The position numbers and the translations under genes are program-made. Under the pieces are notes generated by a model. It worked only from the letters and a program-made list of their open reading frames with translations. It searched no databases and was not told the DNA's origin. 16,877 bases of DNA from a virus (lineage: Duplodnaviria; Heunggongvirae; Uroviricota; Caudoviricetes): IMG/VR virus record IMGVR_UViG_2531839147_000004; one strand, 5' to 3'. Each line of letters starts with the position of its first letter. Position 1 is the stretch's first letter. Shown piece by piece: positions 89 to 16,877 of the stretch.

Positions 89-508
89 TTAAGAGGCTTT
101 TTGTTTTTTCTTTCGTGCTAACTCTTCGTAAATTGCATTGTACTTCTGTTTTTTCTCTTCAAGAGTTTTTAAAAGTTCATCTGTCTCACTGTCAGGGAGC
201 TCGTCCAGAAGGTCAATGATGATTTTTTGTCTTGGATTTAACTCCTGATAGAAACGTACCTGTCCACTTTCTTCTGTATCCTCTCCCAAAAGATAGGTTG
301 GTGTTGTTCCTATTAGTGTTGCTAATTCCCTTAATTTCTCCCGGCGAGGAATTGTTTCGCCATTAAACCATTTGCTAACCGCTTTTGGTGTTAATTTCAT
401 TCGACGGGCAATTTCTGCCTGCCTTCCATGTTGTTCATAACCAGCGTTTTCACAGGCTAGCGCAAGCCTACTGGCGAACTCTTTACGCGCTTTATCTTCA
501 TGAACCAT
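89..508 (-). CDS. XRE-family HTH transcriptional repressor, prophage immunity repressor of the RacR/DicA type (no LexA-like S24 domain)
   Basis: 139-aa ORF; N-terminal helix-turn-helix signature (QAEIARRMKLTPKAVSKWFNGETIPRREKLRELATLIG); acidic/coiled C-terminus; divergently arranged with a Cro-like gene across a 79-bp palindrome-bearing intergenic region. Confidence 0.8.
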   Translation of the reverse strand: MVHEDKARKEFASRLALACENAGYEQHGRQAEIARRMKLTPKAVSKWFNGETIPRREKLRELATLIGTTPTYLLGEDTEESGQVRFYQELNPRQKIIIDLLDELPDSETDELLKTLEEKKQKYNAIYEELARKKKQKAS

Positions 509-587: not shown

Positions 588-842
588 ATGAACCAGAAAA
601 CACTTGAAGATGTAATCAAAACTGTTCGCGTTGCTGTTGTGGCCGACGTTTGTGGTGTCAGCCAAAGAGCAATCTATAAATGGATGGATAACGGAAAATT
701 GCCTCGCACAGAATATACCGGCGAAACAAATTACGCTGAAAAAATCGCTCTTGCATCAAACGGATTATTTTCTGCCGATGCAATTTTAACTATTGGCAGG
801 AATAAAACTACTACGAAAAAGCTGATGGGAGTTGATTCATGA
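588..842 (+). CDS. Cro-like HTH protein, YdaS-family (start taken at ATG 588, not the longer ORF-track start at 516)
   Basis: HTH core VADVCGVSQRAIYKWMDNGKLP; SD GAGGG 5-9 nt upstream of ATG 588; stop overlaps start of next gene (ATGA at 839-842). Confidence 0.7.
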   Translation: MNQKTLEDVIKTVRVAVVADVCGVSQRAIYKWMDNGKLPRTEYTGETNYAEKIALASNGLFSADAILTIGRNKTTTKKLMGVDS

Positions 843-1264
843 AAATCAAGCATGAACACATCCGCATGGCGATGAATGCCTGGGCGCATCCGGACGGCGA
901 AAAAGTACCGGCTGCGAAAATTACCAAAGCGTATTTCGAGCTGGGAATGACGTTCCCGGAACTGTATGACGACAGCCATCCGGAAGCCCTGGCTCGCAAT
1001 ACTCAGAAAATTTTCCGCTGGGTGGAGAAAGACACCCCTGATGCGGTTAAAAAAATTCAGGCGTTGTTACCAGCTATCGAAAAAGCAATGCCACCTCTGC
1101 TGGTGGCCCGAATGCGCAGTCATAGCTCAGCCTATTTTCGGGAACTAGTGGAGACGCGGGAACGACTGGTGAGAGACGCTGATGATTTTGTCGCAGTGGC
1201 GATCGCTGGTTTCAACCAGATGAATCGTGGTGGCCCTGCAGGAAATATTGTGGCTGTGCATTGA
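839..1264 (+). CDS. YdaT-like (CII-like regulatory / putative toxin YdaT family) protein
   Basis: 141 aa; N-terminus MKIKHEHI... characteristic of Rac-type YdaT as I recall it; translationally coupled to the Cro/YdaS-like gene; position equals cII in lambdoid early-right operons. Confidence 0.6.
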   Translation: MKIKHEHIRMAMNAWAHPDGEKVPAAKITKAYFELGMTFPELYDDSHPEALARNTQKIFRWVEKDTPDAVKKIQALLPAIEKAMPPLLVARMRSHSSAYFRELVETRERLVRDADDFVAVAIAGFNQMNRGGPAGNIVAVH

Positions 1265-1335: not shown

Positions 1336-2406
1336 ATGGCTAACGCCTGGCTCAGATTATGGCATGACATGCCAAATGACCCTAAGTGGCGAACAATTGC
1401 CAGGGTGTCAGGGCAGCCAATTGCAACAGTGATGGCAGTGTATATCCACCTCCTGGTGAGCGCGTCACGAAATGTCACGCGAGGTCACATTGAGGTCACG
1501 ACAGAAGATTTGGCAAGTGCGCTCGACGTGACAGAAGAGGTAATTGATTCAATTTTGCAGACGATGCAGGGGCGGGTACTTGATGGTGATTTAATCACTG
1601 GATGGGAAAAACGCCAGGTGCTTAAAGAGGACAACGGCAATATTTCGCAAACCGCAAAATCTCCTGCAGAGCGCAAGAGGGCGCAGCGAGAGAGGGAAAG
1701 AAAGCGGGAACAAAATGGCGATTGTCACGGCGCGTCACGAAATGTCACGCATATGTCACGACGAGTCACGACAGATAAAGATACAGATAAAGATACAGAT
1801 CAAGAAGATCAAAACACTATGGTCCATGGCGTAAAAAACGCCACGAACCAGGCAGGGGATGTTCAGACCGTCAATCTTGGTCAGCCAGCAGGCACGACAC
1901 CGGAAGCCGATTCAGCGTATGCGCTGAAAGCCGATTCGGGCGCTGTGCAGCAGGTGATGACCGCAAGGCCGGAGCAATCACACCAACTGCAGCAGCCCGA
2001 AGCCGATTCCGCCATTCAGCGGGAAGCCGATCGGGTAGTCCCGGAAAACACCGGGCAGTCTGTGGGACGAGTGGATTATCCGGATGTGTTCGAACAGGTC
2101 TGGCGGGAGTACCCGTTGCGTGCTGGGGCAAACCCGAAGAAATCCGCTTTCAGTGCCTGGAAGGCCAGATTACGCGAGGGGGTGCCACCAGAGGCCATGC
2201 TGGATGGCGTGAGGCGTTACGCAAGATACTTGGCGGCTACCGGGAAAACGGGAACGGAATTTGTTCAGCGAGCGACGACGTTTTTTGGACCGGACCGGAA
2301 TTTTGAGAACCCCTGGTTGCTCCCGGTAAGCGGCACGAACAACCAGCGTTGTGTGAATCATATTTCTGAACCGGATAACGAAATTCCGCCGGGCTTCAGG
2401 GGGTAA
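1336..2406 (+). CDS. Phage replication initiation protein (O-like / YdaU-like replisome organizer) containing the presumptive origin
   Basis: ORF-track start 1330 is GTG; ATG 1336 has SD AAGAGG 6 nt upstream. N-terminal motif WLRLWHDMPNDPKWRTIARVSGQ and conserved C-terminal domain typical of prophage replication proteins; internal iterons (see repeat features). Confidence 0.65.
   Translation: MANAWLRLWHDMPNDPKWRTIARVSGQPIATVMAVYIHLLVSASRNVTRGHIEVTTEDLASALDVTEEVIDSILQTMQGRVLDGDLITGWEKRQVLKEDNGNISQTAKSPAERKRAQRERERKREQNGDCHGASRNVTHMSRRVTTDKDTDKDTDQEDQNTMVHGVKNATNQAGDVQTVNLGQPAGTTPEADSAYALKADSGAVQQVMTARPEQSHQLQQPEADSAIQREADRVVPENTGQSVGRVDYPDVFEQVWREYPLRAGANPKKSAFSAWKARLREGVPPEAMLDGVRRYARYLAATGKTGTEFVQRATTFFGPDRNFENPWLLPVSGTNNQRCVNHISEPDNEIPPGFRG
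1460..1500. repeat. Iteron cluster I: four GTCAC(G) repeats phased at 10-11 bp (starts 1464, 1474, 1484, 1495)
   Basis: Direct reading. 21-bp segment GCGCGTCACGAAATGTCACGC (1460-1480) is repeated exactly at 1730-1750. Confidence 0.75.
1720..1800. repeat. Iteron cluster II (five GTCAC repeats at 1724, 1734, 1744, 1755, 1765) followed by AT-rich 12-bp tandem repeat ACAGATAAAGAT x2.5 (1771-1800); candidate ori inside the initiator gene
   Basis: Direct reading; helical-turn phasing and adjacent AT-rich repeat resemble the ori-lambda arrangement inside gene O. Encodes TDKDTDKDTD in the protein. Confidence 0.6.
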
Positions 2407-2446: not shown

Positions 2447-2869
2447 GTGGCAAAAGTTTTTACACAAGAAGAGCGGGAAAAAATTAAAGGGCAGGTTCTT
2501 GAACTCGTACGCCAGAGTGGGCGCGAGACGTTACGACAACTGGAAGCTAAAACTGGGGCAACAAGATATCTGATGAGCGTTCTGGCCAGAGAGCTGGTTG
2601 CCAGTGGCGATGTATACAATTCTGGCTACGGGTTATTCCCGTCTGAACAGGCTCGTAAAGACTGGCAAAATGCCCGCAAAAAATTATCGAGGGCAAAGCT
2701 GAAGAAACCGGTTGTGGTTGATCCGGACCTTATCTGGTCATTACCTGACGGAGAAATACGTCGCTACGACAGTCGCCTAAACATAATCTGTCGCGAGTGC
2801 CGGAAGAGCGAAGTTATGCAGCGCATATTGTCGTTTTATCAGGGGGATGTTCGGTATTTATTGAAGTGA
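2447..2869 (+). CDS. Hypothetical prophage protein (GTG start), possible winged-helix DNA-binding protein; last phage-type gene before the cargo block
   Basis: 140-aa ORF, SD CAGGAGGG 5 nt upstream of GTG 2447; basic C-terminus; no Walker A motif, so not a DnaC-type helicase loader. Confidence 0.45.
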   Translation: MAKVFTQEEREKIKGQVLELVRQSGRETLRQLEAKTGATRYLMSVLARELVASGDVYNSGYGLFPSEQARKDWQNARKKLSRAKLKKPVVVDPDLIWSLPDGEIRRYDSRLNIICRECRKSEVMQRILSFYQGDVRYLLK

Positions 2870-3203: not shown

Positions 3204-5207
3204 ATGATTATGAGTGAAAATGATACAACCCCAAAGAAGTCTACAAGCCAGATTAACAAAGCGGTATTCTTTACATCTGCTTTGCTAATTTTCCTTCTTG
3301 TCGCCTTTGCCGCCGTATTCCCGGATGTCGCCGACAAAAATTTTAAACTACTTCAGCAACAAATCTTCACGAATGCCAGCTGGTTCTACATACTTGCTGT
3401 GGCCCTGATTTTACTGAGCGTCACGTTCCTTGGACTCTCACGTTACGGTGATATAAAGCTGGGCCCAGACCATGCGCAGCCTGATTTCAGCTACCACTCC
3501 TGGTTCGCGATGCTTTTTTCGGCAGGGATGGGGATCGGCCTGATGTTCTTTGGCGTTGCCGAACCTGTGATGCATTATCTTTCGCCACCTGTCGGCACTC
3601 CAGAGACCGTTGCGGCAGCGAAGGAAGCCATGCGCCTGACGTTCTTCCACTGGGGTCTGCACGCATGGGCAATTTATGCCATCGTGGCGCTGATTCTGGC
3701 CTTTTTCAGTTACCGTCACGGTCTGCCTTTAACGCTGCGTTCTGCGCTCTATCCCATTATCGGCGATCGCATTTACGGGCCTATAGGCCACGCGGTTGAT
3801 ATCTTCGCCGTGATAGGCACTGTCTTTGGCGTTGCAACATCGCTGGGTTACGGTGTATTGCAGGTGAATGCCGGTTTGAACCATCTTTTCGGCGTGCCCA
3901 TCAATGAAACGGTACAGGTCATTTTGATCGTGGTCATCACGGGGTTAGCGACGATTTCGGTGGTGTCCGGCCTGGACAAGGGAATACGCATCCTGTCTGA
4001 GCTTAATCTGGGCCTGGCGGTGTTGCTCCTGGCGCTGGTCTTGTGCCTGGGTCCCACTGTGCTTCTGCTGAAGTCATTTGTGGAAAATACGGGTGGTTAT
4101 CTGTCGGAACTGGTGAGTAAAACGTTCAACCTTTACGCGTATGAACCCAAGTCGAGCAACTGGCTGGGGGGCTGGACATTATTATACTGGGGATGGTGGC
4201 TTTCATGGTCGCCGTTTGTAGGTATGTTCATTGCACGCGTTTCCCGCGGCAGGACAATTCGTGAGTTCGTGACTGGCGTGTTGTTTGTTCCCGCCGGCTT
4301 TACGCTCATGTGGATGACGGTGTTTGGAAACAGCGCCATCTATCTCATCATGAACCAGGGCGCCACTGACCTCGCCAATACCGTTCAGCAGGATGTTGCG
4401 CTTGCCCTGTTTAATTTCCTGGAGCATTTCCCGTTCTCTTCCGTGCTGTCATTCATTGCAATGGCGATGGTCATCGTCTTCTTTGTAACGTCTGCTGATT
4501 CGGGGGCAATGGTTGTGGATACTCTGGCATCAGGTGGGGTGGCAAACACGCCCGTCTGGCAGCGAATTTTCTGGGCATCGCTCATGGGCGTTGTTGCTAT
4601 TGCCCTGCTGATCGCAGGGGGGCTGAGTGCGTTGCAAACCGTAACGATAGCGAGTGCATTGCCCTTCTCAGTTATCTTATTAATATCCATATACGGACTG
4701 TTAAAAGCCCTGCGTCGGGATTTGACCAAGCGTGAAAGCCTTAGCATGGCGACTATTGCTCCTACGGCTGCACGTAACCCAATTCCCTGGCAGAGAAGGT
4801 TACGCAATATCGCGTATTTGCCGAAGCGCTCTCTTGTGAAACGTTTTATGGACGACATTATCCAACCCGCCATGACGCTGGTTCAGGAGGAACTTAACAA
4901 GCAGGGAACGATAAGCCACATCAGTGACGCCGCCGAGGATCGTATTCGCCTTGAAGTCGATTTGGGCAACGAGCTGAATTATATATATGAAGTGAGGCTT
5001 CGCGGGTATAACTCACCGACCTTCGCGCTCGCTGCGCTGGATAATGATGAGCAGCAGAGTGAACAACATCGATATTATCGCGCTGAAGTCTATCTCAAAG
5101 AGGGCGGCCAAAATTATGATGTAATGGGCTGGAATCAGGAACAGCTGATTAATGACATACTGGACCAGTACGAAAAACACCTGCACTTCCTGCATCTGGT
5201 TCGTTAA
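3204..5207 (+). CDS. BCCT-family transporter, BetT-like (choline / glycine-betaine type) with long cytoplasmic C-terminal tail
   Basis: 667 aa; BCCT tryptophan signature GGWTLLYWGWWLSWSPF; overall layout and C-terminal tail (...DILDQYEKHLHFLHL) parallel E. coli BetT as I recall it. Confidence 0.9.
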   Translation: MIMSENDTTPKKSTSQINKAVFFTSALLIFLLVAFAAVFPDVADKNFKLLQQQIFTNASWFYILAVALILLSVTFLGLSRYGDIKLGPDHAQPDFSYHSWFAMLFSAGMGIGLMFFGVAEPVMHYLSPPVGTPETVAAAKEAMRLTFFHWGLHAWAIYAIVALILAFFSYRHGLPLTLRSALYPIIGDRIYGPIGHAVDIFAVIGTVFGVATSLGYGVLQVNAGLNHLFGVPINETVQVILIVVITGLATISVVSGLDKGIRILSELNLGLAVLLLALVLCLGPTVLLLKSFVENTGGYLSELVSKTFNLYAYEPKSSNWLGGWTLLYWGWWLSWSPFVGMFIARVSRGRTIREFVTGVLFVPAGFTLMWMTVFGNSAIYLIMNQGATDLANTVQQDVALALFNFLEHFPFSSVLSFIAMAMVIVFFVTSADSGAMVVDTLASGGVANTPVWQRIFWASLMGVVAIALLIAGGLSALQTVTIASALPFSVILLISIYGLLKALRRDLTKRESLSMATIAPTAARNPIPWQRRLRNIAYLPKRSLVKRFMDDIIQPAMTLVQEELNKQGTISHISDAAEDRIRLEVDLGNELNYIYEVRLRGYNSPTFALAALDNDEQQSEQHRYYRAEVYLKEGGQNYDVMGWNQEQLINDILDQYEKHLHFLHLVR

Positions 5208-5386: not shown

Positions 5387-6547
5387 ATGATACCTGAGTC
5401 GGTTTCCGTGAAGGTTGGTGCGGAAGCAGTCGATAACATTCTGAACATACTGGCATCGAGTATGCTGGCAGTGACCACATTTTCGCTGAGCATCATGGTC
5501 ACAGCCTACGGTTCAGCCACTACTAATGTGACTCCCAGAGCTACTCGTTTAGTTGTTGAAGACGTCACCACACAAAATGTACTGGCCACCTTCATCGGTT
5601 CTTTTCTCTTCAGTCTGGTAGGGATTATTGCCCTCAATATGGGAGCTTATGGAGAAAGGGGGAGAGTCATTTTATTCATTGTAACACTGGTTGTCATTGC
5701 CTTAATCCTCATCACATTGCTTCGCTGGATACAGCATTTGACCTCTCTGGGGAGGGTTGGTGAGACAACGGCAAAAGTAGAACAGGCGGCCATCGAAACA
5801 TTTATTGCGAGAGCAAGAAATCCCTGTCTCGGCGGATATCCATGGCTTGAGAACAATGAACAGCCGAAAGGAACGGTTGCAGTTTATCCGAAAAAGATTG
5901 GCTATGTTGAATATGTTGATATGGTGAAACTCAGCAAGCTGCTGACCAATGATCCCCGTCATGTATACCTCGTGGCGCAGCCGGGCAGTTTCATACATCC
6001 GTCCACGCCAGTTTTGTACCTGAGTCAGGGCCAGGAGTCATCAATCAGCACCGATTTACTTGAGACGATTATTGTCTCGGATGTACGTTCATTTGCTCAG
6101 GACCCCCGATTTTGTCTTAGCGTCATGGCCGAAATAGCCTGCCGAGCCCTTTCCCCCGCAGTGAACGATCCTGGAACCGCCATTGATGTCATTGGCAGAG
6201 GTGTACGTATACTTTCCGCTTACGCGCAGAATAAATCTGATGAAATAGAAGTGAAATATCCTTCTGTACATGTTGCACCACTTCAGAATAACGATCTACT
6301 TGAAGACTTTTTCTCACCTGTTGCGCGCGATGGTGCCAGTATGAGGGAAATTCAGATAAGGGTACTTAAAGGACTGTCGATGCTGAGTAAGGGTTGGCCT
6401 GGAATTTTTGCTGAAGCCGCACAAACCCTAGCATTTGAAACATTAGAGCATGCTACTCGTGCTGACCATATAGATTCTGACAGATATCTAATAAAATCAA
6501 TTTATTATAATTTATTTAGTGGCGAAGATTCTAATAAAAAACCATAG
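5387..6547 (+). CDS. Membrane protein of unknown function (DUF2254-like), N-terminus probably disrupted by a frameshift
   Basis: Three predicted TM helices then a soluble C-terminal domain. A well-placed SD+ATG at 5271 opens a 27-codon ORF in another frame; the main frame is open from 5312 and encodes a further TM helix before the first ATG. Confidence 0.55.
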   Translation: MIPESVSVKVGAEAVDNILNILASSMLAVTTFSLSIMVTAYGSATTNVTPRATRLVVEDVTTQNVLATFIGSFLFSLVGIIALNMGAYGERGRVILFIVTLVVIALILITLLRWIQHLTSLGRVGETTAKVEQAAIETFIARARNPCLGGYPWLENNEQPKGTVAVYPKKIGYVEYVDMVKLSKLLTNDPRHVYLVAQPGSFIHPSTPVLYLSQGQESSISTDLLETIIVSDVRSFAQDPRFCLSVMAEIACRALSPAVNDPGTAIDVIGRGVRILSAYAQNKSDEIEVKYPSVHVAPLQNNDLLEDFFSPVARDGASMREIQIRVLKGLSMLSKGWPGIFAEAAQTLAFETLEHATRADHIDSDRYLIKSIYYNLFSGEDSNKKP

Positions 6548-6677: not shown

Positions 6678-7559
6678 TCAACGCGGAAACGTTTTAAGAA
6701 TGTAATCCCGAACATAGGCGGTTCGGCTGTTATTAGCCGTCCTTTTGTTCCAGACCAGATAAAGATGATTAGTCGGAGCGAGGTCTGCAGGTGTCACTGA
6801 AATCAGGCGACCACTTTTCAGGTCATTGTCACAGTGATAATCCGGCAGCACTGTCCACCCGTGGCCGTCACAGACCAAGTCGCGGATAATACGTAAATCC
6901 GGAATGGTGAATGTAGCCTGCATCTCAGGGGCTCTCTGAAACATGGAGGCCCAGAGCGCTCTAATCAGTGGCAACTCTTCGTCATAAGCAATCAGCGGTA
7001 ATGAGGCAAGCGTTTCAGCACCAGGTTCTGATCCGATGATCTCTGACATGGCGGGAGCATGAACAAGGAGCATGCGTTCAGTCAGTAGATGTGCATAGCC
7101 GTACAGACGGTCATCAGGCATAGATGCGGTAACAGCGAGATCGGCGCTCCCGTCATGCAAAAGGGAATAAATACGTTGCTTATTGCCGGTATGAAAGCGT
7201 AGGCGATACCCCTCCTTCATTAGTGGAGCCATTACTGTCCCAAGCCGGGAATGAATAAAATCTGGCGGTCCTGCCAGATTAATTGTTCCCCCACGTACAG
7301 AGCCTGACCGGAAAGAGGACAGCTTTTCTTCCAGACCATCAATGAAGGGTGAAACTGAGCGGGCAAGCTCATCCGCAGCTTCGGTTGCCGTCACGCCTCT
7401 GGCCTGCCTGATAAACAGACGCTTACCAACCAGAGTCTCAAGAGACTGGATATGCTGTGACGCCGCGGGCTGAGTGATGCCCAGTAGTTCTGCCGCCTTT
7501 GAAAAGGAGCCAGAGCGATAGGCCTCAAGAAACGTTCGCAGATGGCTCAGATGGCTCAT
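6678..7559 (-). CDS. LysR-family transcriptional regulator
   Basis: 293 aa; N-terminal LysR HTH (LRTFLEAYRSGSFSKAAELLGITQPAASQHIQSLE); start ATG overlaps the stop of the upstream ChaC-like gene (ATGA at 7556-7559). Confidence 0.9.
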   Translation of the reverse strand: MSHLSHLRTFLEAYRSGSFSKAAELLGITQPAASQHIQSLETLVGKRLFIRQARGVTATEAADELARSVSPFIDGLEEKLSSFRSGSVRGGTINLAGPPDFIHSRLGTVMAPLMKEGYRLRFHTGNKQRIYSLLHDGSADLAVTASMPDDRLYGYAHLLTERMLLVHAPAMSEIIGSEPGAETLASLPLIAYDEELPLIRALWASMFQRAPEMQATFTIPDLRIIRDLVCDGHGWTVLPDYHCDNDLKSGRLISVTPADLAPTNHLYLVWNKRTANNSRTAYVRDYILKTFPR

Positions 7560-8248
7560 AGTGAAGCGCCTCGCTGATGAAGTTTATCGTTACAGGGAGC
7601 CTCATGCAGAGCAAGGGCCAGTTCACTCACGTAATCATCCCGTATTCCCAACGCACCCAGAGTGGCCTGCAGTTTCCATACATAATCTGCATTCGTGCCA
7701 ATGTCTCCACGGGCAGATGCGATGCTCAACGCTACGGTCGCTGTAAGATTGTCCTGTTCATAATGCGGATGCAGTCTGTCTGATACGAAAGCCAGCGCCT
7801 GAATTTCCTTACCGTTTCCTAGCGAAACGTCTGCCCAGACCGGACGGTAAAGACCGGTTATCATCTCGCGCGTCCAGACAATTTCCAGCTCATTAATAAG
7901 AGTCGATTCCGGCAGTCTGAACGCAATACCTTCGGTAATTCCACCTTCGTCGAGCGATAACATCCTGCCGGGGACATCAGGAGTCGCTCGTCCGGATATC
8001 AAACGAATGCAGAAACTGCGCTGCCATCCTTTCAGACGGGCCCGTTGCATTTCTTCAATCGCCAGCACGGGATTCCACATCAATGACCCGTAGGCAAATA
8101 TCCAGACAGGAGCACCCGTCGGGCGCTCCTCCAGAGTAGAGTTCATTGATGCGCGTATTTTTTCAGCGTCCCAGAGCATATTCGCCGGGAGCAGCGCTTC
8201 ATGCACCCTGACAAATGTGCCATTAAGCATATTTTCACGGGTAAGCAT
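7556..8248 (-). CDS. ChaC-like gamma-glutamylcyclotransferase (glutathione-specific GGCT family)
   Basis: 230 aa; hallmark VWIFAYGSLMWNP motif and overall co-linearity with E. coli ChaC as I recall it; SD GGGAGG upstream. Confidence 0.85.
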   Translation of the reverse strand: MLTRENMLNGTFVRVHEALLPANMLWDAEKIRASMNSTLEERPTGAPVWIFAYGSLMWNPVLAIEEMQRARLKGWQRSFCIRLISGRATPDVPGRMLSLDEGGITEGIAFRLPESTLINELEIVWTREMITGLYRPVWADVSLGNGKEIQALAFVSDRLHPHYEQDNLTATVALSIASARGDIGTNADYVWKLQATLGALGIRDDYVSELALALHEAPCNDKLHQRGASL

Positions 8249-8259
8249 ATAACCTCCCT

Positions 8260-9459
8260 TTACTGGCCTACGATTTTAACCTGTTGAAATTTACGACTGT
8301 GGCTGCGACGGATTTGTGCAAGCAGCAACAGCAGGCCGAGCAGAGAAACAATCGCACCGCTGATACCGGTATACACGATACCGGCGTGGCTTATAGTAAT
8401 GCTGCCCAGTACTGATCCCAGCGCTATACCTGAGTTGAAGCCCGCAATATTCAGGCCGGCAGCAACACCATGCGCATGAGGAGCATGTTGCTCAGCGACA
8501 CCAATCAGACGGGCCTGCAGTGCCGGCACTGCGGCAAATGTCACCATACCCAGCAGCGCAACCAGAATGCCCATGCTCACCGGTGAGGATGACAGCAGCC
8601 ACATACCAAGCACGACAACAACAATGCCGCTAATGATGAGTATATTGGCACGATTAACCCCCATGCTGTCGGTAAGTTTCCCACCAAGAATATTACCTAC
8701 CGCAGCTGTAATACCGTAAACCAGCATAAACAGACTCACCGTTGCTCCGGTAACCCCTGTCACCTGCGTCAGAATAGGTGCGATAAAGGTGTAATCCGTA
8801 AACGAGCCTGCATACGCCAGCACCGTAACCAGCGCGCCGGCCAGCAACTTACGGTTAAACAGCATGCCGATATTCTGCATTGCTGAGTCACTATGTTCAC
8901 CGGGCACGCTGCGTACGGGATCTTTCATACCGAACAACAGTCCAAGGAATCCGAACGCGCCAAAAGCGGCAATAGCGCCGAGAACTGGACGCCATGAGAC
9001 CACCCCCCCCAACCATGTACTCAGCGGTACGCCGATTGCCATCGCCAGAGTAAAGCCACCAAATACCACAGCCACCGCTCTGCCTGCTTTACCCGGTCCA
9101 GCAAGACGAGCTGCGGTACTGGATGCCGCAGCCAGAAACAGGCCGTGTCCCAGACCAGCAATGAACCGCGCTAACAGGAGCTGAGGTAATGTGGCTGCAA
9201 ACGCGGCCGCCAGACTACCGGCAGTAAACACAACGGCAGTTGTAAGCATTACATTTTTCCGGCTCCAGCTTGCTGTCAGCGCAGACAGTACGGGTGCCGC
9301 GAACGTTGCCCCCAGTGCATAGGTTGTAACCGCTGCCCCGGTCTGCTCCACACCCACACACAACCCCTGAGCCATAACGTCTGTCAGCCCAATGGGGACA
9401 AATTCCGCGAGTCCGAGCGCAAAGGCACTGATAGTAAACACATAAATAACAAATGGCAT
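8260..9459 (-). CDS. MFS transporter (12-TM, YdhP / drug-sugar efflux-like)
   Basis: 399 aa, highly hydrophobic with repeated TM segments; N-terminal LGLAEFVPIGL motif typical of this MFS subgroup; SD CAGGAG before ATG; first gene of the MFS-ChaC-LysR operon. Confidence 0.85.
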   Translation of the reverse strand: MPFVIYVFTISAFALGLAEFVPIGLTDVMAQGLCVGVEQTGAAVTTYALGATFAAPVLSALTASWSRKNVMLTTAVVFTAGSLAAAFAATLPQLLLARFIAGLGHGLFLAAASSTAARLAGPGKAGRAVAVVFGGFTLAMAIGVPLSTWLGGVVSWRPVLGAIAAFGAFGFLGLLFGMKDPVRSVPGEHSDSAMQNIGMLFNRKLLAGALVTVLAYAGSFTDYTFIAPILTQVTGVTGATVSLFMLVYGITAAVGNILGGKLTDSMGVNRANILIISGIVVVVLGMWLLSSSPVSMGILVALLGMVTFAAVPALQARLIGVAEQHAPHAHGVAAGLNIAGFNSGIALGSVLGSITISHAGIVYTGISGAIVSLLGLLLLLAQIRRSHSRKFQQVKIVGQ

Positions 9460-10182: not shown

Positions 10183-10521
10183 CTATTTTTTGGTGCTATA
10201 GACTTTTTCGCCCGAGAAGTCTGGAGCGACCCAAAAGTTAATATTAAACTGAGCATCATCGCTTAGTTCAACACGGTGCCAGTATTGTGGTGGGCTTGTT
10301 GCAAAAGCGCCAGCATTAATGACTACTTTTATCTCCGGTTCAGTAGCATTCTCATCAGTAAAACCATAATATGTTACAGTGCCTTCCATTACGCACAACT
10401 GCCCAAAAACACCTGCTGCTGTATTATGATGTGTTAATAACGCTGAAGGTACGTTCTCTTTTGTGAAGAACGGAGTTGAGCGTTTGATTACCCAATCTTT
10501 AGGAATTCTCTTGTGTGTCAT
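10183..10521 (-). CDS. YeaR-like DUF1971 protein (nitrosative-stress regulon type)
   Basis: Motifs KRSTPFF and FATSPPQYWHRVE fit the YeaR/TehB-C-terminal cupin-like family. Start reassigned to the internal Met (ATG 10521, SD GAGGTGG) because the ORF-track start at 10545 lies inside the upstream operator palindrome. Confidence 0.7.
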   Translation of the reverse strand: MTHKRIPKDWVIKRSTPFFTKENVPSALLTHHNTAAGVFGQLCVMEGTVTYYGFTDENATEPEIKVVINAGAFATSPPQYWHRVELSDDAQFNINFWVAPDFSGEKVYSTKK

Positions 10522-10536
10522 AACCACCTCATCAAA

Positions 10537-10559
10537 AACATGCATTATAAATGCGTGTT
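10537..10559 (-). promoter_or_regulatory. NsrR-type operator (11-1-11 palindrome) overlapping a TATAAT -10 element
   Basis: AACATGCATTA T AAATGCGTGTT, 9 of 11 arm positions symmetric; resembles the E. coli NsrR consensus as I recall it. TATAAT on the gene strand sits at the palindrome centre (10545-10550). Confidence 0.5.
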
Positions 10560-13215: not shown

Positions 13216-13805
13216 GGACTGGTTTATTGTATGCCAAATGATTATTAAAAAGGTTGTGTTAATAACAAAATCCGAAATAATATGCCTGCATATTTTTATC
13301 TTGCTTATATTCTGCATATTGTGCATAGCAGGCTCATCCCTGCAATCAAAACTGTATGATGAGTTATTTTTTTTTCCTTTTTTCCAGTCATCTGATGATG
13401 ACCTGCTTCTTTTTAATCCGGATCGACATCAGTTTTTTAAGATAATTCCTGCGAGTTATATGCATAAATACCACAAACTCCGCATTTTATGTGGTTGGGA
13501 GTTGCCGGGCGCGCAGTGAGTTTGCTAAGAAAACTCCTGCATGGTGAATCCCCCTGTGCGGTGGGGTGATACCATTAACCTTTTCTGTCGCCGACAGGTA
13601 TCACGAACATTTTGTTCACCGGGAGGCACCCGGCACCATGCACTTCAATAGATTCTCTCCACATTATGGATATTCTTTCAGAATATCCCACGCAGACTTT
13701 GTGTAAATGTTAACAAATGTGCGTTTTATTTGATCTGATTCGCTGTTTGAGCGTCCAAAACAACGGTATATATAATCCTTTACTATATGACATATGTGAG
13801 GAAAA

Positions 13806-14234
13806 ATGGGTTTTCGTAGCGCATCAATTCTTACGTTGATTATTAGTGGGATTATTATCGGGTGCACTGATGCTGTATCGACAAATTATCATGACCGTAC
13901 ATCATATTACTCCGATAAAGCAATAGAGACACAGTATGTGAGTTCATCTGAACGTACTTCTGATGTTAGTGAGGATATCCGTCTGTATGCCCATCAAATC
14001 AAGAGCGCCATCGAAAAACAGTTCGGGGATGCGAGTAAGTATTCAGGAAAAGAGTGTACACTGAGAATGCATATGGCCCCGAATGGCCTTCTACTGGAGG
14101 TTAAAAGAGAAAGTGGAGACCTCGATTTATGTCGTGAAGCGATGAATGCGATAAAGAATGCTGATATACCTGCCCCCCCTTCGCCGGAAGTATATAAAGT
14201 ATTTCAAAATGGGGTGCTGGATTTTAAACCCTGA
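13806..14234 (+). CDS. Outer-membrane lipoprotein with TolA C-terminal (domain III)-like domain, paralog 1
   Basis: Signal peptide with lipobox IIGC then Thr; C-terminal ~85 aa align by eye to TolA domain III (QIKSAIE..., GKECTLRM, APNGLLL, GD..LC, IPAPPSPEVYKVF, ending VLDFKP); SD GAGGA before ATG; AT-rich. Confidence 0.7.
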   Translation: MGFRSASILTLIISGIIIGCTDAVSTNYHDRTSYYSDKAIETQYVSSSERTSDVSEDIRLYAHQIKSAIEKQFGDASKYSGKECTLRMHMAPNGLLLEVKRESGDLDLCREAMNAIKNADIPAPPSPEVYKVFQNGVLDFKP

Positions 14235-14384: not shown

Positions 14385-14780
14385 GTGGGATTAAAGAAAA
14401 TCGTTATGTTGACTTTTTGGGTCGGTTTTGTTGCGGGATGCACACCTTTACACCCTTCAGATTGCCACAAAACTACTGCTACAGGTAGTTGCAGTTCAGG
14501 ACGCTGGGATGATCAGGATGAATGGGGGGCGCAAGCGCGGGGAATCAGAGCTGCAATTAATGCCAAACTTGATGAGCCGCATAACTGGAAAGGGAAAAAA
14601 TGCAGGTTGCATATGGAATTCTCTCAGGATGGCACGGCGTTAAAAATATCTACCAGTAACGGTGATAAAGCCTATTGCGAAGCGATAAAGTCCGCAGCTC
14701 ATAAAGCCAAATTTCCGGCCTTCAACAATCCGGAAGTCTACAGAGATTTTCAGAAATCTGGCTTTGACATGCGAGGTTAG
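14385..14780 (+). CDS. Outer-membrane lipoprotein with TolA C-terminal-like domain, paralog 2 (GTG start)
   Basis: SD GAGGAG 6 nt upstream of GTG; lipobox VAGC then Thr; C-terminal domain shares the GK.C.L.M...DG...GD..C...P...PEVY..FQ...D pattern with paralog 1 (about one third identical by manual alignment). Confidence 0.7.
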   Translation: MGLKKIVMLTFWVGFVAGCTPLHPSDCHKTTATGSCSSGRWDDQDEWGAQARGIRAAINAKLDEPHNWKGKKCRLHMEFSQDGTALKISTSNGDKAYCEAIKSAAHKAKFPAFNNPEVYRDFQKSGFDMRG

Positions 14781-15247: not shown

Positions 15248-16877
15248 TGCCTCCATCATTACGAAAAGTCGTTGCTGCTGCTATTGGTGGCGGAGCAATT
15301 GCTATAGCATCAGTGTTAATCACTGGCCCAAGTGGTAACGATGGTCTGGAAGGTGTCAGCTACATACCATACAAAGATATTGTTGGTGTATGGACTGTAT
15401 GTCACGGGCATAACGGGAAATACACCGCACAGGATGCAACGACAGCACAGAAAGGGATAATCCAGCTAAGCAGCGCGACCAACAGCACGTCTGAAACGCT
15501 GGCGGCAACGCCAAAGGCAGTAAAATCAGCCTATGACAATGCAGAGAAACGTCTGCAGAAAGACCAGAACGGCGCTGATATACCCGATAAGGGACGCTTC
15601 CTGAACAACATTAACGCGGTCAGTAAAACAGACTTTGCTGATAAGCGTGGTATGCGTTATGTGCGGGTTAACGCTCCTGCAGGTGCAACATCTGGAAAAT
15701 ATTACCCTGTTGTTGTTATGCGTTCTGCTGGCTCAGTAAGCGAACTGGCATCAAGGGTCATTATCACCACGGCAACGCGAACCGCAGGCGATCCGATGAA
15801 TAACTGCGAGTTTAACGGATTTGTTATGCCTGGTGGCTGGACTGACAGGGGGCGTTATGCTTATGGAATGTTCTGGCAATATCAAAACAATGAACGAGCC
15901 ATCCACTCAATAATGATGAGTAATAAGGGCGATGATTTGCGCTCTGTGTTCTATGTTGATGGCGCTGCTTTCCCTGTTTTTGCGTTTATCGAAGATGGCC
16001 TGTCAATATCCGCACCTGGTGCTGATCTCGTTGTTAATGATACGACCTATAAGTTTGGGGCAACAAATCCAGCGACTGAATGTATCGCGGCGGACGTTAT
16101 CCTTGATTTTAAGAGTGGGCGTGGTTTTTATGAGTCTCATTCGTTAATCGTTAACGATAACTTGTCGTGCAAAAAACTTTTTGCCACAGACGAAATTGTA
16201 GCGCGTGGTGGTAATCAGATTCGAATGATAGGTGGGGAGTATGGGGCATTATGGCGTAATGATGGCGCTAAAACTTACCTGCTGCTTACCAATCAAGGTG
16301 ATGTTTATGGTGGATGGAATACATTAAGACCGTTTGCTATTGATAACGCAACCGGCGAACTGGTTATTGGAACCAAGCTGTCTGCAAGTCTGAACGGTAA
16401 CGCATTGACAGCAACAAAGCTGCAAACGCCAAGACTGGTTTCTGGGGTTGAGTTTGATGGTTCAAAAGATATTACTTTAACCGCCGCGCATGTGGCTGCT
16501 TTTGCCAGAAGGGCAACGGATACATATGCCGATGCGGATGGTGGCGTTCCCTGGAATGCCGAATCAGGCGCTTACAATGTCACCCGCTCTGGCGACAGCT
16601 ATATTCTGGTTAACTTCTATACCGGAGTCGGAAGTTGCCGGACCCTGCAGATGAAGGCGCATTACAGAAATGGTGGTCTGTTCTACCGTTCTTCAAGAGA
16701 CGGTTATGGTTTTGAGGAAGACTGGGCAGAAGTTTATACCTCGAAAAATCTTCCACCAGAAAGCTACCCAGTCGGCGCACCAATCCCGTGGCCATCAGAT
16801 ACCGTTCCGTCTGGTTATGCCCTGATGCAGGGGCAGACTTTTGACAAATCTGCTTACCCGAAACTTGCAGCCGCTTA
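15247..16877 (+). CDS. Chimeric ORF: SAR-endolysin N-terminus (phage 21 R-like, ~54 codons) fused in frame to lambdoid side-tail-fibre sequence; 3' end beyond the window
   Basis: Begins [55 protein letters not shown] (SAR helix plus start of lysozyme domain), then continues [15 protein letters not shown]... through ...[29 protein letters not shown], typical of Stf-type fibres. I translated the frame by hand and found no stop to the window end. Not in the ORF track because it is open-ended. Confidence 0.7.

Follow-up and report, generated by a model that had tools for sequence, protein, structure and literature searches.

Phased GTCACG iterons and an A/T-rich tract inside an initiator gene: a probable vegetative replication origin of a Rac-type lambdoid prophage

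Placement of a replication origin inside the gene of its own initiator is a textbook principle. The iteron plasmids P1 (incC/incA), F and R6K carry two clusters of initiator sites in the same orientation that are tied to the rep gene; one cluster adjoins the unwinding element and the other could be regulatory. In phage lambda, iterons and an A/T-rich tract lie in the middle of gene O (PMC7466680). In SPP1, oriL lies within gene 38, and its direct repeats, which have an A/T-rich unwinding element beside them, are bound by the gene product gp38 (G38P) (PMC6316719). Six 11-bp repeats have been predicted in gene 18 of phage L (PMC8022706). Here, we describe the replication region of the IMG/VR virus record IMGVR_UViG_2531839147_000004, a stretch of 16,877 nucleotides (hereafter the window) that represents a Rac prophage locus of Escherichia coli. 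A 356-amino acid (aa) initiator is encoded there, and its gene contains two clusters of short GTCACG repeats (iterons) and an A/T-rich tract. Comparison with related loci indicates that positions 1460-1815, within the coding sequence of this initiator, are very likely the vegetative origin of a Rac-type lambdoid prophage.

The motif GTCAC was found on the + strand at 1464, 1474, 1484 and 1495 (cluster I; spacings of 10, 10 and 11 bp) and at 1724, 1734, 1744, 1755 and 1765 (cluster II; 10, 10, 11 and 10 bp), that is, about once per helical turn. When the positions were re-derived, these nine copies in groups of four and five were exactly as given in the preliminary description of this DNA; eight of the nine read GTCACG and the copy at 1484 reads GTCACA. 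A tenth copy, absent from that description, is inverted (CGTGAC on the + strand) and occupies 1527-1532. The exact 21-bp duplication between the clusters and the A/T-rich tandem repeat after cluster II that had been reported were both present, the latter measured as ACAGATAAAGAT x2.9 at 1771-1805, and the repeats were found in the translation as described (ASRNVT twice, then TDKDTDKDTD). A second exact duplication, GTCACGACAGA, lies at 1495-1505 and 1765-1775. The distance between the clusters is set by the protein-coding sequence lying between them.

The hexamer GTCACG had 14 matches in the window compared to 5.4 +/- 2.3 expected, and none of 200 shuffles reached 14. Among 300 Markov-1 simulated windows, no 5-mer formed a run of five at 9-12 bp and a run of four arose once, compared to runs of four and of five copies of one 5-mer, 260 bp apart, in the real window. 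Together with the codon-shuffled controls given below, these results exclude a chance origin of the repeats.

The arrangement resembles that of ori-lambda and the Shiga toxin (Stx) phages in that the origin has a central position in the initiator gene, an A/T-rich tract lies transcriptionally downstream of the repeats, and iteron copy number differs among relatives (4 vs 6 there). The initiator also resembles lambda O in its layout of an N-terminal DNA-binding part (here presumed), a linker and a C-terminal partner-recruiting part. However, neither the whole protein nor its halves matched the O families in Pfam at E <= 0.01, and whereas ori-lambda consists of one cluster of four ~19-bp iterons with dyad symmetry, the units here are asymmetric, ~10.3 bp long with a 6-bp core, and form two clusters plus an inverted copy. 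No P-like loader gene is present, and the C-terminus resembles DnaT. Short asymmetric iterons at one per turn, a cluster inside the coding sequence of the DNA-binding domain and the lack of a phage-encoded loader set this locus apart from ori-lambda.

As in SPP1 oriL, direct repeats and an A/T-rich element lie inside the organizer's own gene, although the SPP1 genome also encodes a loader and a helicase and contains another origin at a distance of 13 kb. The initiator shares the NCBI name 'phage replisome organizer' with the TIGR01714/PF09681 proteins, and its scores are far below the cut-offs of both families (12.8 bits vs 23.3 for PF09681; 14.1 vs 49.8 for TIGR01714). None of 40 relatives matched these families at E <= 0.01. 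Because the sub-threshold hidden Markov model alignments span the full model, a remote homology is possible. The predicted origins in gene 18 of P22 and L likewise consist of short iterons, one for each helical turn, within the initiator gene of a lambdoid phage, but the repeat there is TGTCCAACGGA, a single cluster is described, and gene 18 is paired with the DnaB-type helicase gene 12. In contrast to P1, F and R6K, in which the clusters flank the rep gene, both clusters here are inside the coding sequence, and the initiators are unrelated. A literature search found no paper on this origin, on GTCACG iterons or on replisome-organizer origins in E. coli prophages.

With a period of 10-11 bp, the repeats place their core in each of the three codon phases (xxG TCA CGx, GTC ACG and xGT CAC). 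Cluster I reads GCG TCA CGA, GTC ACG, GGT CAC and GTC ACG, and the encoded peptide is not periodic. Synonymous sites were compared in 24 GTCAC-type homologues from different genera, including Rahnella, Serratia, Bordetella, Pseudomonas, Acidovorax, Stenotrophomonas, Chromobacterium and Gilvimarinus. The result showed that conserved residues whose third codon position lies in a cluster I core had a mean codon entropy of 0.125 bit, compared to 1.43 bit for 40 other conserved degenerate codons of the N-terminal domain (N-domain; Mann-Whitney p = 1e-4). Ala43 was GCG in 22/24 homologues, Ser44 TCA in 23/24, Gly50 GGT in 24/24 and His51 CAC in 23/23; at the sixth core base, Thr48 was ACG in 24/24 and Thr55 in 23/24. 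The spacer codon Arg49 used four different codons. Val65, in the inverted copy, was GTG in all 20 homologues with Val there. The cores were identical across hosts with 32-58% A+T. The consensus beyond GTCACG was weak, and most spacings were 10 bp (113 cases), the others being 11 bp (32) or 9 bp (1). The repeats are under selection as DNA.

The alleles of E. coli differ by in-frame indels of 21 bp, corresponding to two iterons and 7 codons, and by gained or lost units of the TDKD repeat. Since two iterons equal 21 bp, 7 codons and two helical turns, both the reading frame and the helical phase are kept. Natural alleles with a 21-bp, two-iteron insertion show that the segment formed by helix 3 and the following loop tolerates 7 additional aa, and E. 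albertii carries 6 + 5 copies. In one natural allele of 302 aa, cluster II and the A/T tract have been lost by an in-frame deletion, and this allele is probably dead as an origin. Alleles noted in E. coli include P0139, of 302 aa, and P0123/P0142, with two extra cluster I iterons and extra cluster II units.

The same layout was found in relatives. Pseudomonas phage phita81A and Aeromonas phage pAEv1818 encode N-domain homologues of 73% identity, with four copies in cluster I at the same codons and four or three copies in cluster II; compared with the window, every core base is invariant, whereas spacers and flanking synonymous sites vary. Cluster II of relatives has 3-5 copies. In Ralstonia phage Firinga (37% identity) the core is GCAACG, with 4 copies in cluster I and 4-5 in cluster II, and in the uncultured phage MW202785 (48% identity) it is GAACGC, with 3 + 4 copies. 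Many bacterial prophages carry (CG)AACGC, GTAAC or GACGC as two phased clusters at the same places of the gene. A locus was scored as having the layout when one 5-mer occurred in phase two or more times in zone I and three or more times in zone II; 48 of 67 homologous loci, drawn from many genera, had it, compared to none of 335 codon-shuffled controls, and a few relatives have cluster II only. The N-domains at GTCAC loci are at least 63% identical to that of the window, except at two GTCAC-like loci (L112, 58%; L122, 50%), and non-GTCAC cores go with more distant proteins. The repeat core thus co-varies with the N-domain of the initiator.

Co-occurrence was scanned within +/-2.5 kb around 26 GTCAC loci. 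The only window protein common to all was the initiator N-domain (26/26); the repressor and the YdaT-like protein each occurred at 3/26, the initiator C-domain at 2/26, and the cro-like protein and DUF977 at 1/26 each. Partner genes also differ, being a Toprim-DnaB primase-helicase in the Pseudomonas phage, a DnaC-like loader in the Aeromonas phage and a DnaB helicase in Firinga, while in the window the initiator has no partner helicase or loader gene. Megablast matches in Stx phages covered only 1928-2406 of the window, that is, the same break point. Because only the N-domain is constant at GTCAC loci while the partner genes differ, the N-domain, the iterons and the A/T tract move as one module, to which C-terminal and helper modules are interchangeably joined.

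A circular 50.9-kb record from P. aeruginosa deposited as a plasmid (CP137943.1; L158, 3129-3418) encodes the N-domain with 4 + 4 GTCAC iterons and a primase-helicase, and PLSDB assigns it no replicon type. CP124671.1 (50.9 kb) gave the same N-domain match. These two records are probably episomal phage genomes and are consistent with autonomous replication. The first search for N-domain homologues returned mostly short contig-end fragments. Unexpectedly, some short metagenomic homologues of the N-domain (P0042, P0060, P0061, P0070, P0098, P0100 and P0103) have HNH endonuclease domains (PF01844, PF14279), reflecting either a fusion or a merge of adjacent genes.

The A/T- and purine-rich tract next to cluster II is a candidate DNA-unwinding element. 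Positions 1775-1814, which start 5 bp after the last iteron, are the least stable 40-mer of the gene (-43.4 kcal/mol compared to a gene mean of -57.4, sd 3.8) and tie the least stable site of the early region 1-2900; two GATC sites lie in the tract, at 1798 and 1807. In every GTCAC locus a (GATAAA)n-type sequence, (A)GATAAAGATAAAGA..., directly follows the last iteron, with 50-77% A+T compared to 32-58% for the gene. Furthermore, the 60 nt after cluster II were A/T-richer than the gene in 48/48 two-cluster loci, by a mean of 17 points. An imperfect palindrome lies just downstream of the tract (Table 1); several relatives have palindromes with 7-bp arms and other sequence 20-60 bp after the tract, for which an excess over chance was not demonstrated. 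Rfam gave no RNA family in the origin region and no tRNAs were found, and an explanation at the RNA level was therefore dropped.

The initiator gene is preceded by a GAGGTGA Shine-Dalgarno sequence upstream of its ATG. Although NCBI uses the organizer name given above, the RefSeq records examined call the product 'hypothetical protein' (WP_001262393.1). An AlphaFold2 model built from 40 sequences had a mean predicted local distance difference test (pLDDT) score of 65.8 and high values inside domains. It predicts a helical N-domain with a wing-like hairpin, a basic helix, a disordered linker (aa 128-243), a C-domain and a C-terminal tail. In this model, cluster I codes for the end of helix 3 and the loop preceding a helix-turn-helix-like pair, whereas cluster II and the A/T tract code for aa 130-157, inside the disordered linker between the folded domains; ori-lambda in the middle of O and oriL in SPP1 gene 38 are placed in a similar way. 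The association with the repeats and the winged-helix-like model make the N-domain the presumed iteron-binding domain.

The C-terminal part matched PHROGs 1701 and 270. The tail EPDNEIPPGFRG (2368-2403) is almost identical to the C-terminus of E. coli DnaT, and aa 333-356 matched DnaT (6aep, E = 0.0027; NF002770, E = 7e-4). The DnaT domain PF17948 was not detected in this protein; it was detected in 3/40 relatives and in the Aeromonas phage protein. The unrelated Rac initiator of strain K-12, YdaU, also ends in ...SAIPPGFRG (L003 4945-4977). A short tail common to different phage initiators suggests a host-docking motif, and the C-domain with its tail is presumed, from sequence similarity, to be a module for recruitment of the host helicase or primosome. 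A 36-nt direct repeat with 75% identity (1900-1935 and 1996-2031; 96 bp, or 32 codons, start to start) encodes PEADS...-type segments in the disordered linker, and the common 324-aa E. coli alleles lack exactly one 32-aa unit.

These observations can be put together in a model whose steps, namely binding, melting, recruitment of the helicase and replication in the theta mode, are inferred. Rightward early transcription would yield the initiator, whose N-domain would bind the asymmetric GTCACG cores, one per turn. Because the cores are 10-11 bp apart, the protomers would be lined up on one face of the helix, and oligomerisation on cluster II would put the neighbouring A/T-rich (GATAAA)n tract under stress and melt it. 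The complex on cluster II would probably be reinforced by cluster I and the inverted copy, which lie ~230-300 bp upstream; cluster I could cooperate with cluster II by looping or wrapping, or could have a regulatory role. The C-domain with its DnaT-like tail would recruit DnaB-DnaC of the host, since the module encodes no helicase or loader, and bidirectional replication would then start. A more far-reaching proposal, which we put forward only tentatively, is that these loci form a distinct and widespread bipartite class of phage origins. The two clusters, one in codons of the DNA-binding domain and the other in the linker beside the unwinding element, might be joined by oligomers of the initiator, with ~260 bp being looped or wrapped, so that the origin is either fired or throttled, and the DnaT-like tail might bring in host DnaB-DnaC where no loader is encoded.

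The repeats might be without function as DNA, having arisen incidentally from repeats in the protein, from low-complexity coding or from slippage. They are indeed translated (ASRNVT twice, TDKD repeats) and their copy number differs between alleles. However, the 10-11 bp period puts the motif in all three frames, and therefore a peptide repeat cannot account for it; synonymous positions are frozen only inside the cores, the cores stay identical across hosts of widely different A+T content, and the codon-shuffled controls never gave the layout. This explanation is strongly disfavoured and its probability is minimal. Nor is it at all probable that the repeats are sites for another early protein, such as a cII/YdaT-like activator driving an antisense or internal promoter. 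Lambda cII binds direct repeats with a 10-bp spacing, the gene just upstream encodes a YdaT/cII-like protein, and a weak sigma-70-like match is present on the minus strand at 1748-1721; but the promoter scan gave fewer sites than shuffles, the core changes along with the N-domain sequence, and each of the YdaT-like, repressor and cro-like proteins is missing at 23-25 of the 26 GTCAC loci, all of which have the N-domain. On this co-occurrence, a cII/YdaT-like activator was rejected as the binder of the repeats.

A rather unlikely, although less remote, explanation is that the repeats are initiator-binding sites with an autoregulatory, titration, 'handcuffing' (like P1 incA) or roadblock role and that the origin lies elsewhere. 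A second iteron cluster with a regulatory function is common in plasmid replicons, cluster I lies ~270 bp from the A/T tract in the 5' part of the gene, and a few relatives have only cluster II. By contrast, in each of the 48 two-cluster loci cluster II directly borders on a conserved tract of low stability, the 46-kb genome of phage Tritos has no other phased GTCAC run, and the placement is that of the origins of lambda and SPP1, whose position inside a gene has been proven by experiment; moreover, a regulatory role of cluster I is compatible with an origin at this site and is not an alternative to it. The preliminary description had proposed an origin embedded in the initiator gene, and all the predictions of that proposal at the sequence level held, namely selection on the repeats, the layout (48/67 loci), co-variation, the A/T tract and placement of cluster II in a linker. 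Several points weigh against an origin in this region. Its support is comparative throughout. The DnaA-box consensus was not enriched and had no match in the origin core, and a scan for promoters and terminators gave no more sites than shuffles, with only the 1820-1850 palindrome flagged. Pfam gave no family at E <= 0.01 for the whole initiator or its halves, the N-terminal part being without a domain in the 40 relatives as well, and a Foldseek search of the AlphaFold2 model against PDB returned only winged-helix regulators at non-significant E > 0.6, so that the DNA-binding role is assigned by association and from the model. Two of the eight frozen codons (Val47 and Val54 as GTC) also served as selection criteria of the homologue set, and cluster I lies within a conserved protein segment, part of whose conservation is at the protein level. 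Finally, the prophage is defective, and the origin may therefore be idle here.

The preliminary description had pointed to the origin regions of Rac-type prophages for comparison. Similarity to K-12 Rac, which carries oriJ, was borne out for the locus (ttcA-intR ... pinR-ydfK) and for the map position downstream of repressor, cro and ydaT, but not for the module itself: the K-12 initiator is YdaU (DUF1376), accompanied by the DnaC-like YdaV, and there are no GTCAC repeats. Because the K-12 module is ydaU/ydaV, of another family and sequence, identity of the window region with oriJ was rejected and the region is regarded as an alternative replication module. Nevertheless, YdaU has the same ...IPPGFRG end as the window initiator, and a near-identical A/T tract, AATAAAGATACAGATAAAGATC, follows GATGTTCAA-type repeats in K-12 ydaU (L003 4472-4632), which suggests that oriJ is built in the same way. 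Since ydaU shows the same layout of repeats and then tract, the probable location of oriJ is within ydaU; an open-access paper with a sequence-level map of oriJ was not found.

Table 1. Coordinates of the origin, the initiator gene and neighbouring features in the window
Feature	Position	Strand	Remarks
HTH (helix-turn-helix) repressor	89-508	-	
cro-like HTH	516/588-842	+	
YdaT/cII-like protein	839-1264	+	
Initiator gene	1336-2406	+	356 aa; PHROG 3729 'replication initiation protein', E = 2e-257
Folded N-terminal helical (winged-helix-like) domain, aa 1-97	1336-1626	+	pLDDT mostly > 85
Exact 21-bp duplication, copy 1	1460-1480	+	GCGCGTCACGAAATGTCACGC
Iteron cluster I	1464-1500	+	4 GTCAC(G); encodes aa 43-55
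Inverted iteron	1527-1532	-	GTCACG on - strand; overlaps codons D64-V65-T66
Predicted basic helix, aa 110-126	1663-1713	+	AERKRAQRERERKREQ; between N-domain and linker, AlphaFold2
Iteron cluster II	1724-1770	+	5 GTCACG; encodes aa 130-145, disordered linker
Exact 21-bp duplication, copy 2	1730-1750	+	GCGCGTCACGAAATGTCACGC
A/T- and purine-rich tract, candidate DNA-unwinding element	1771-1815	+	ACAGATAAAGAT x2.9 and low stability
Imperfect palindrome, 13-bp arms, 5-nt spacer	1820-1850	.	TGGTCCATGGCGT aaaaa ACGCCACGAACCA; just downstream of A/T tract
C-terminal domain, aa 245-332, and tail, aa 345-356	2068-2403	+	AlphaFold2; DnaT-like tail EPDNEIPPGFRG
DUF977/Ren-like gene	2447-2869	+	directly after initiator
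BCCT transporter	3204-5207		cargo island
DUF2254	5387-6547		cargo island
LysR regulator	6678-7559	-	cargo island
ChaC-like gamma-glutamylcyclotransferase	7556-8248	-	cargo island
MFS transporter	8260-9459	-	cargo island
DUF1971	10183-10545	-	cargo island

The Rac locus in which the module lies has the order ttcA-intR-xisR-ralR-recT-recE-racC-kilR-sieB, the window, and tfaR-pinR-ydfK. The immunity and early region upstream of the initiator gene (89-1264) would drive rightward transcription through the origin, and no helicase or helicase-loader gene follows the initiator gene in the window. This Rac variant lacks the head genes, the lysis genes and most of the tail genes and is therefore defective, while initiator and origin are intact. 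The right part of the window contains Q-like late regulators, a holin and a tail-fibre gene, and in the matching genome (L157 28295-30717; window 15932-16147 onward) the tail-fibre gene stands directly after the holin. An island of non-phage cargo (3204-10545) separates the replication module from the Q-like late regulators. In the late region, a match to the small RNA STnc100 (Rfam RF02076) was found at 13509-13695 (+; 86.6 bits, E = 1e-17), and two adjacent open reading frames with TolA C-terminal domains (13806-14234 and 14385-14780, +) lie upstream of the holin.

The module is widespread: 1,646 of 5,426 complete E. coli genomes contain at least 80% of a 1.3-kb query, and it is present at 96-99% identity in the isolated phages Tritos, Evi and the vB_Eco-...R series. 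In the complete 46-kb genome of Tritos, the initiator is the only annotated replication protein and the two clusters are the only phased GTCAC runs. RefSeq records still label this very common gene 'hypothetical protein'. The origin located here would give Rac-type prophages other than that with the oriJ of K-12 a concrete and testable replicon. The combination of frozen synonymous sites with indel units of 21 bp, equal to 7 codons and two helical turns, is a clean instance of protein and DNA codes that overlap. A pair of phased clusters with a core of 5-6 bp, together with a (GATAAA)n-like tract, provides a rule by which origins and their specificity can be predicted for members of this initiator family in Proteobacteria.

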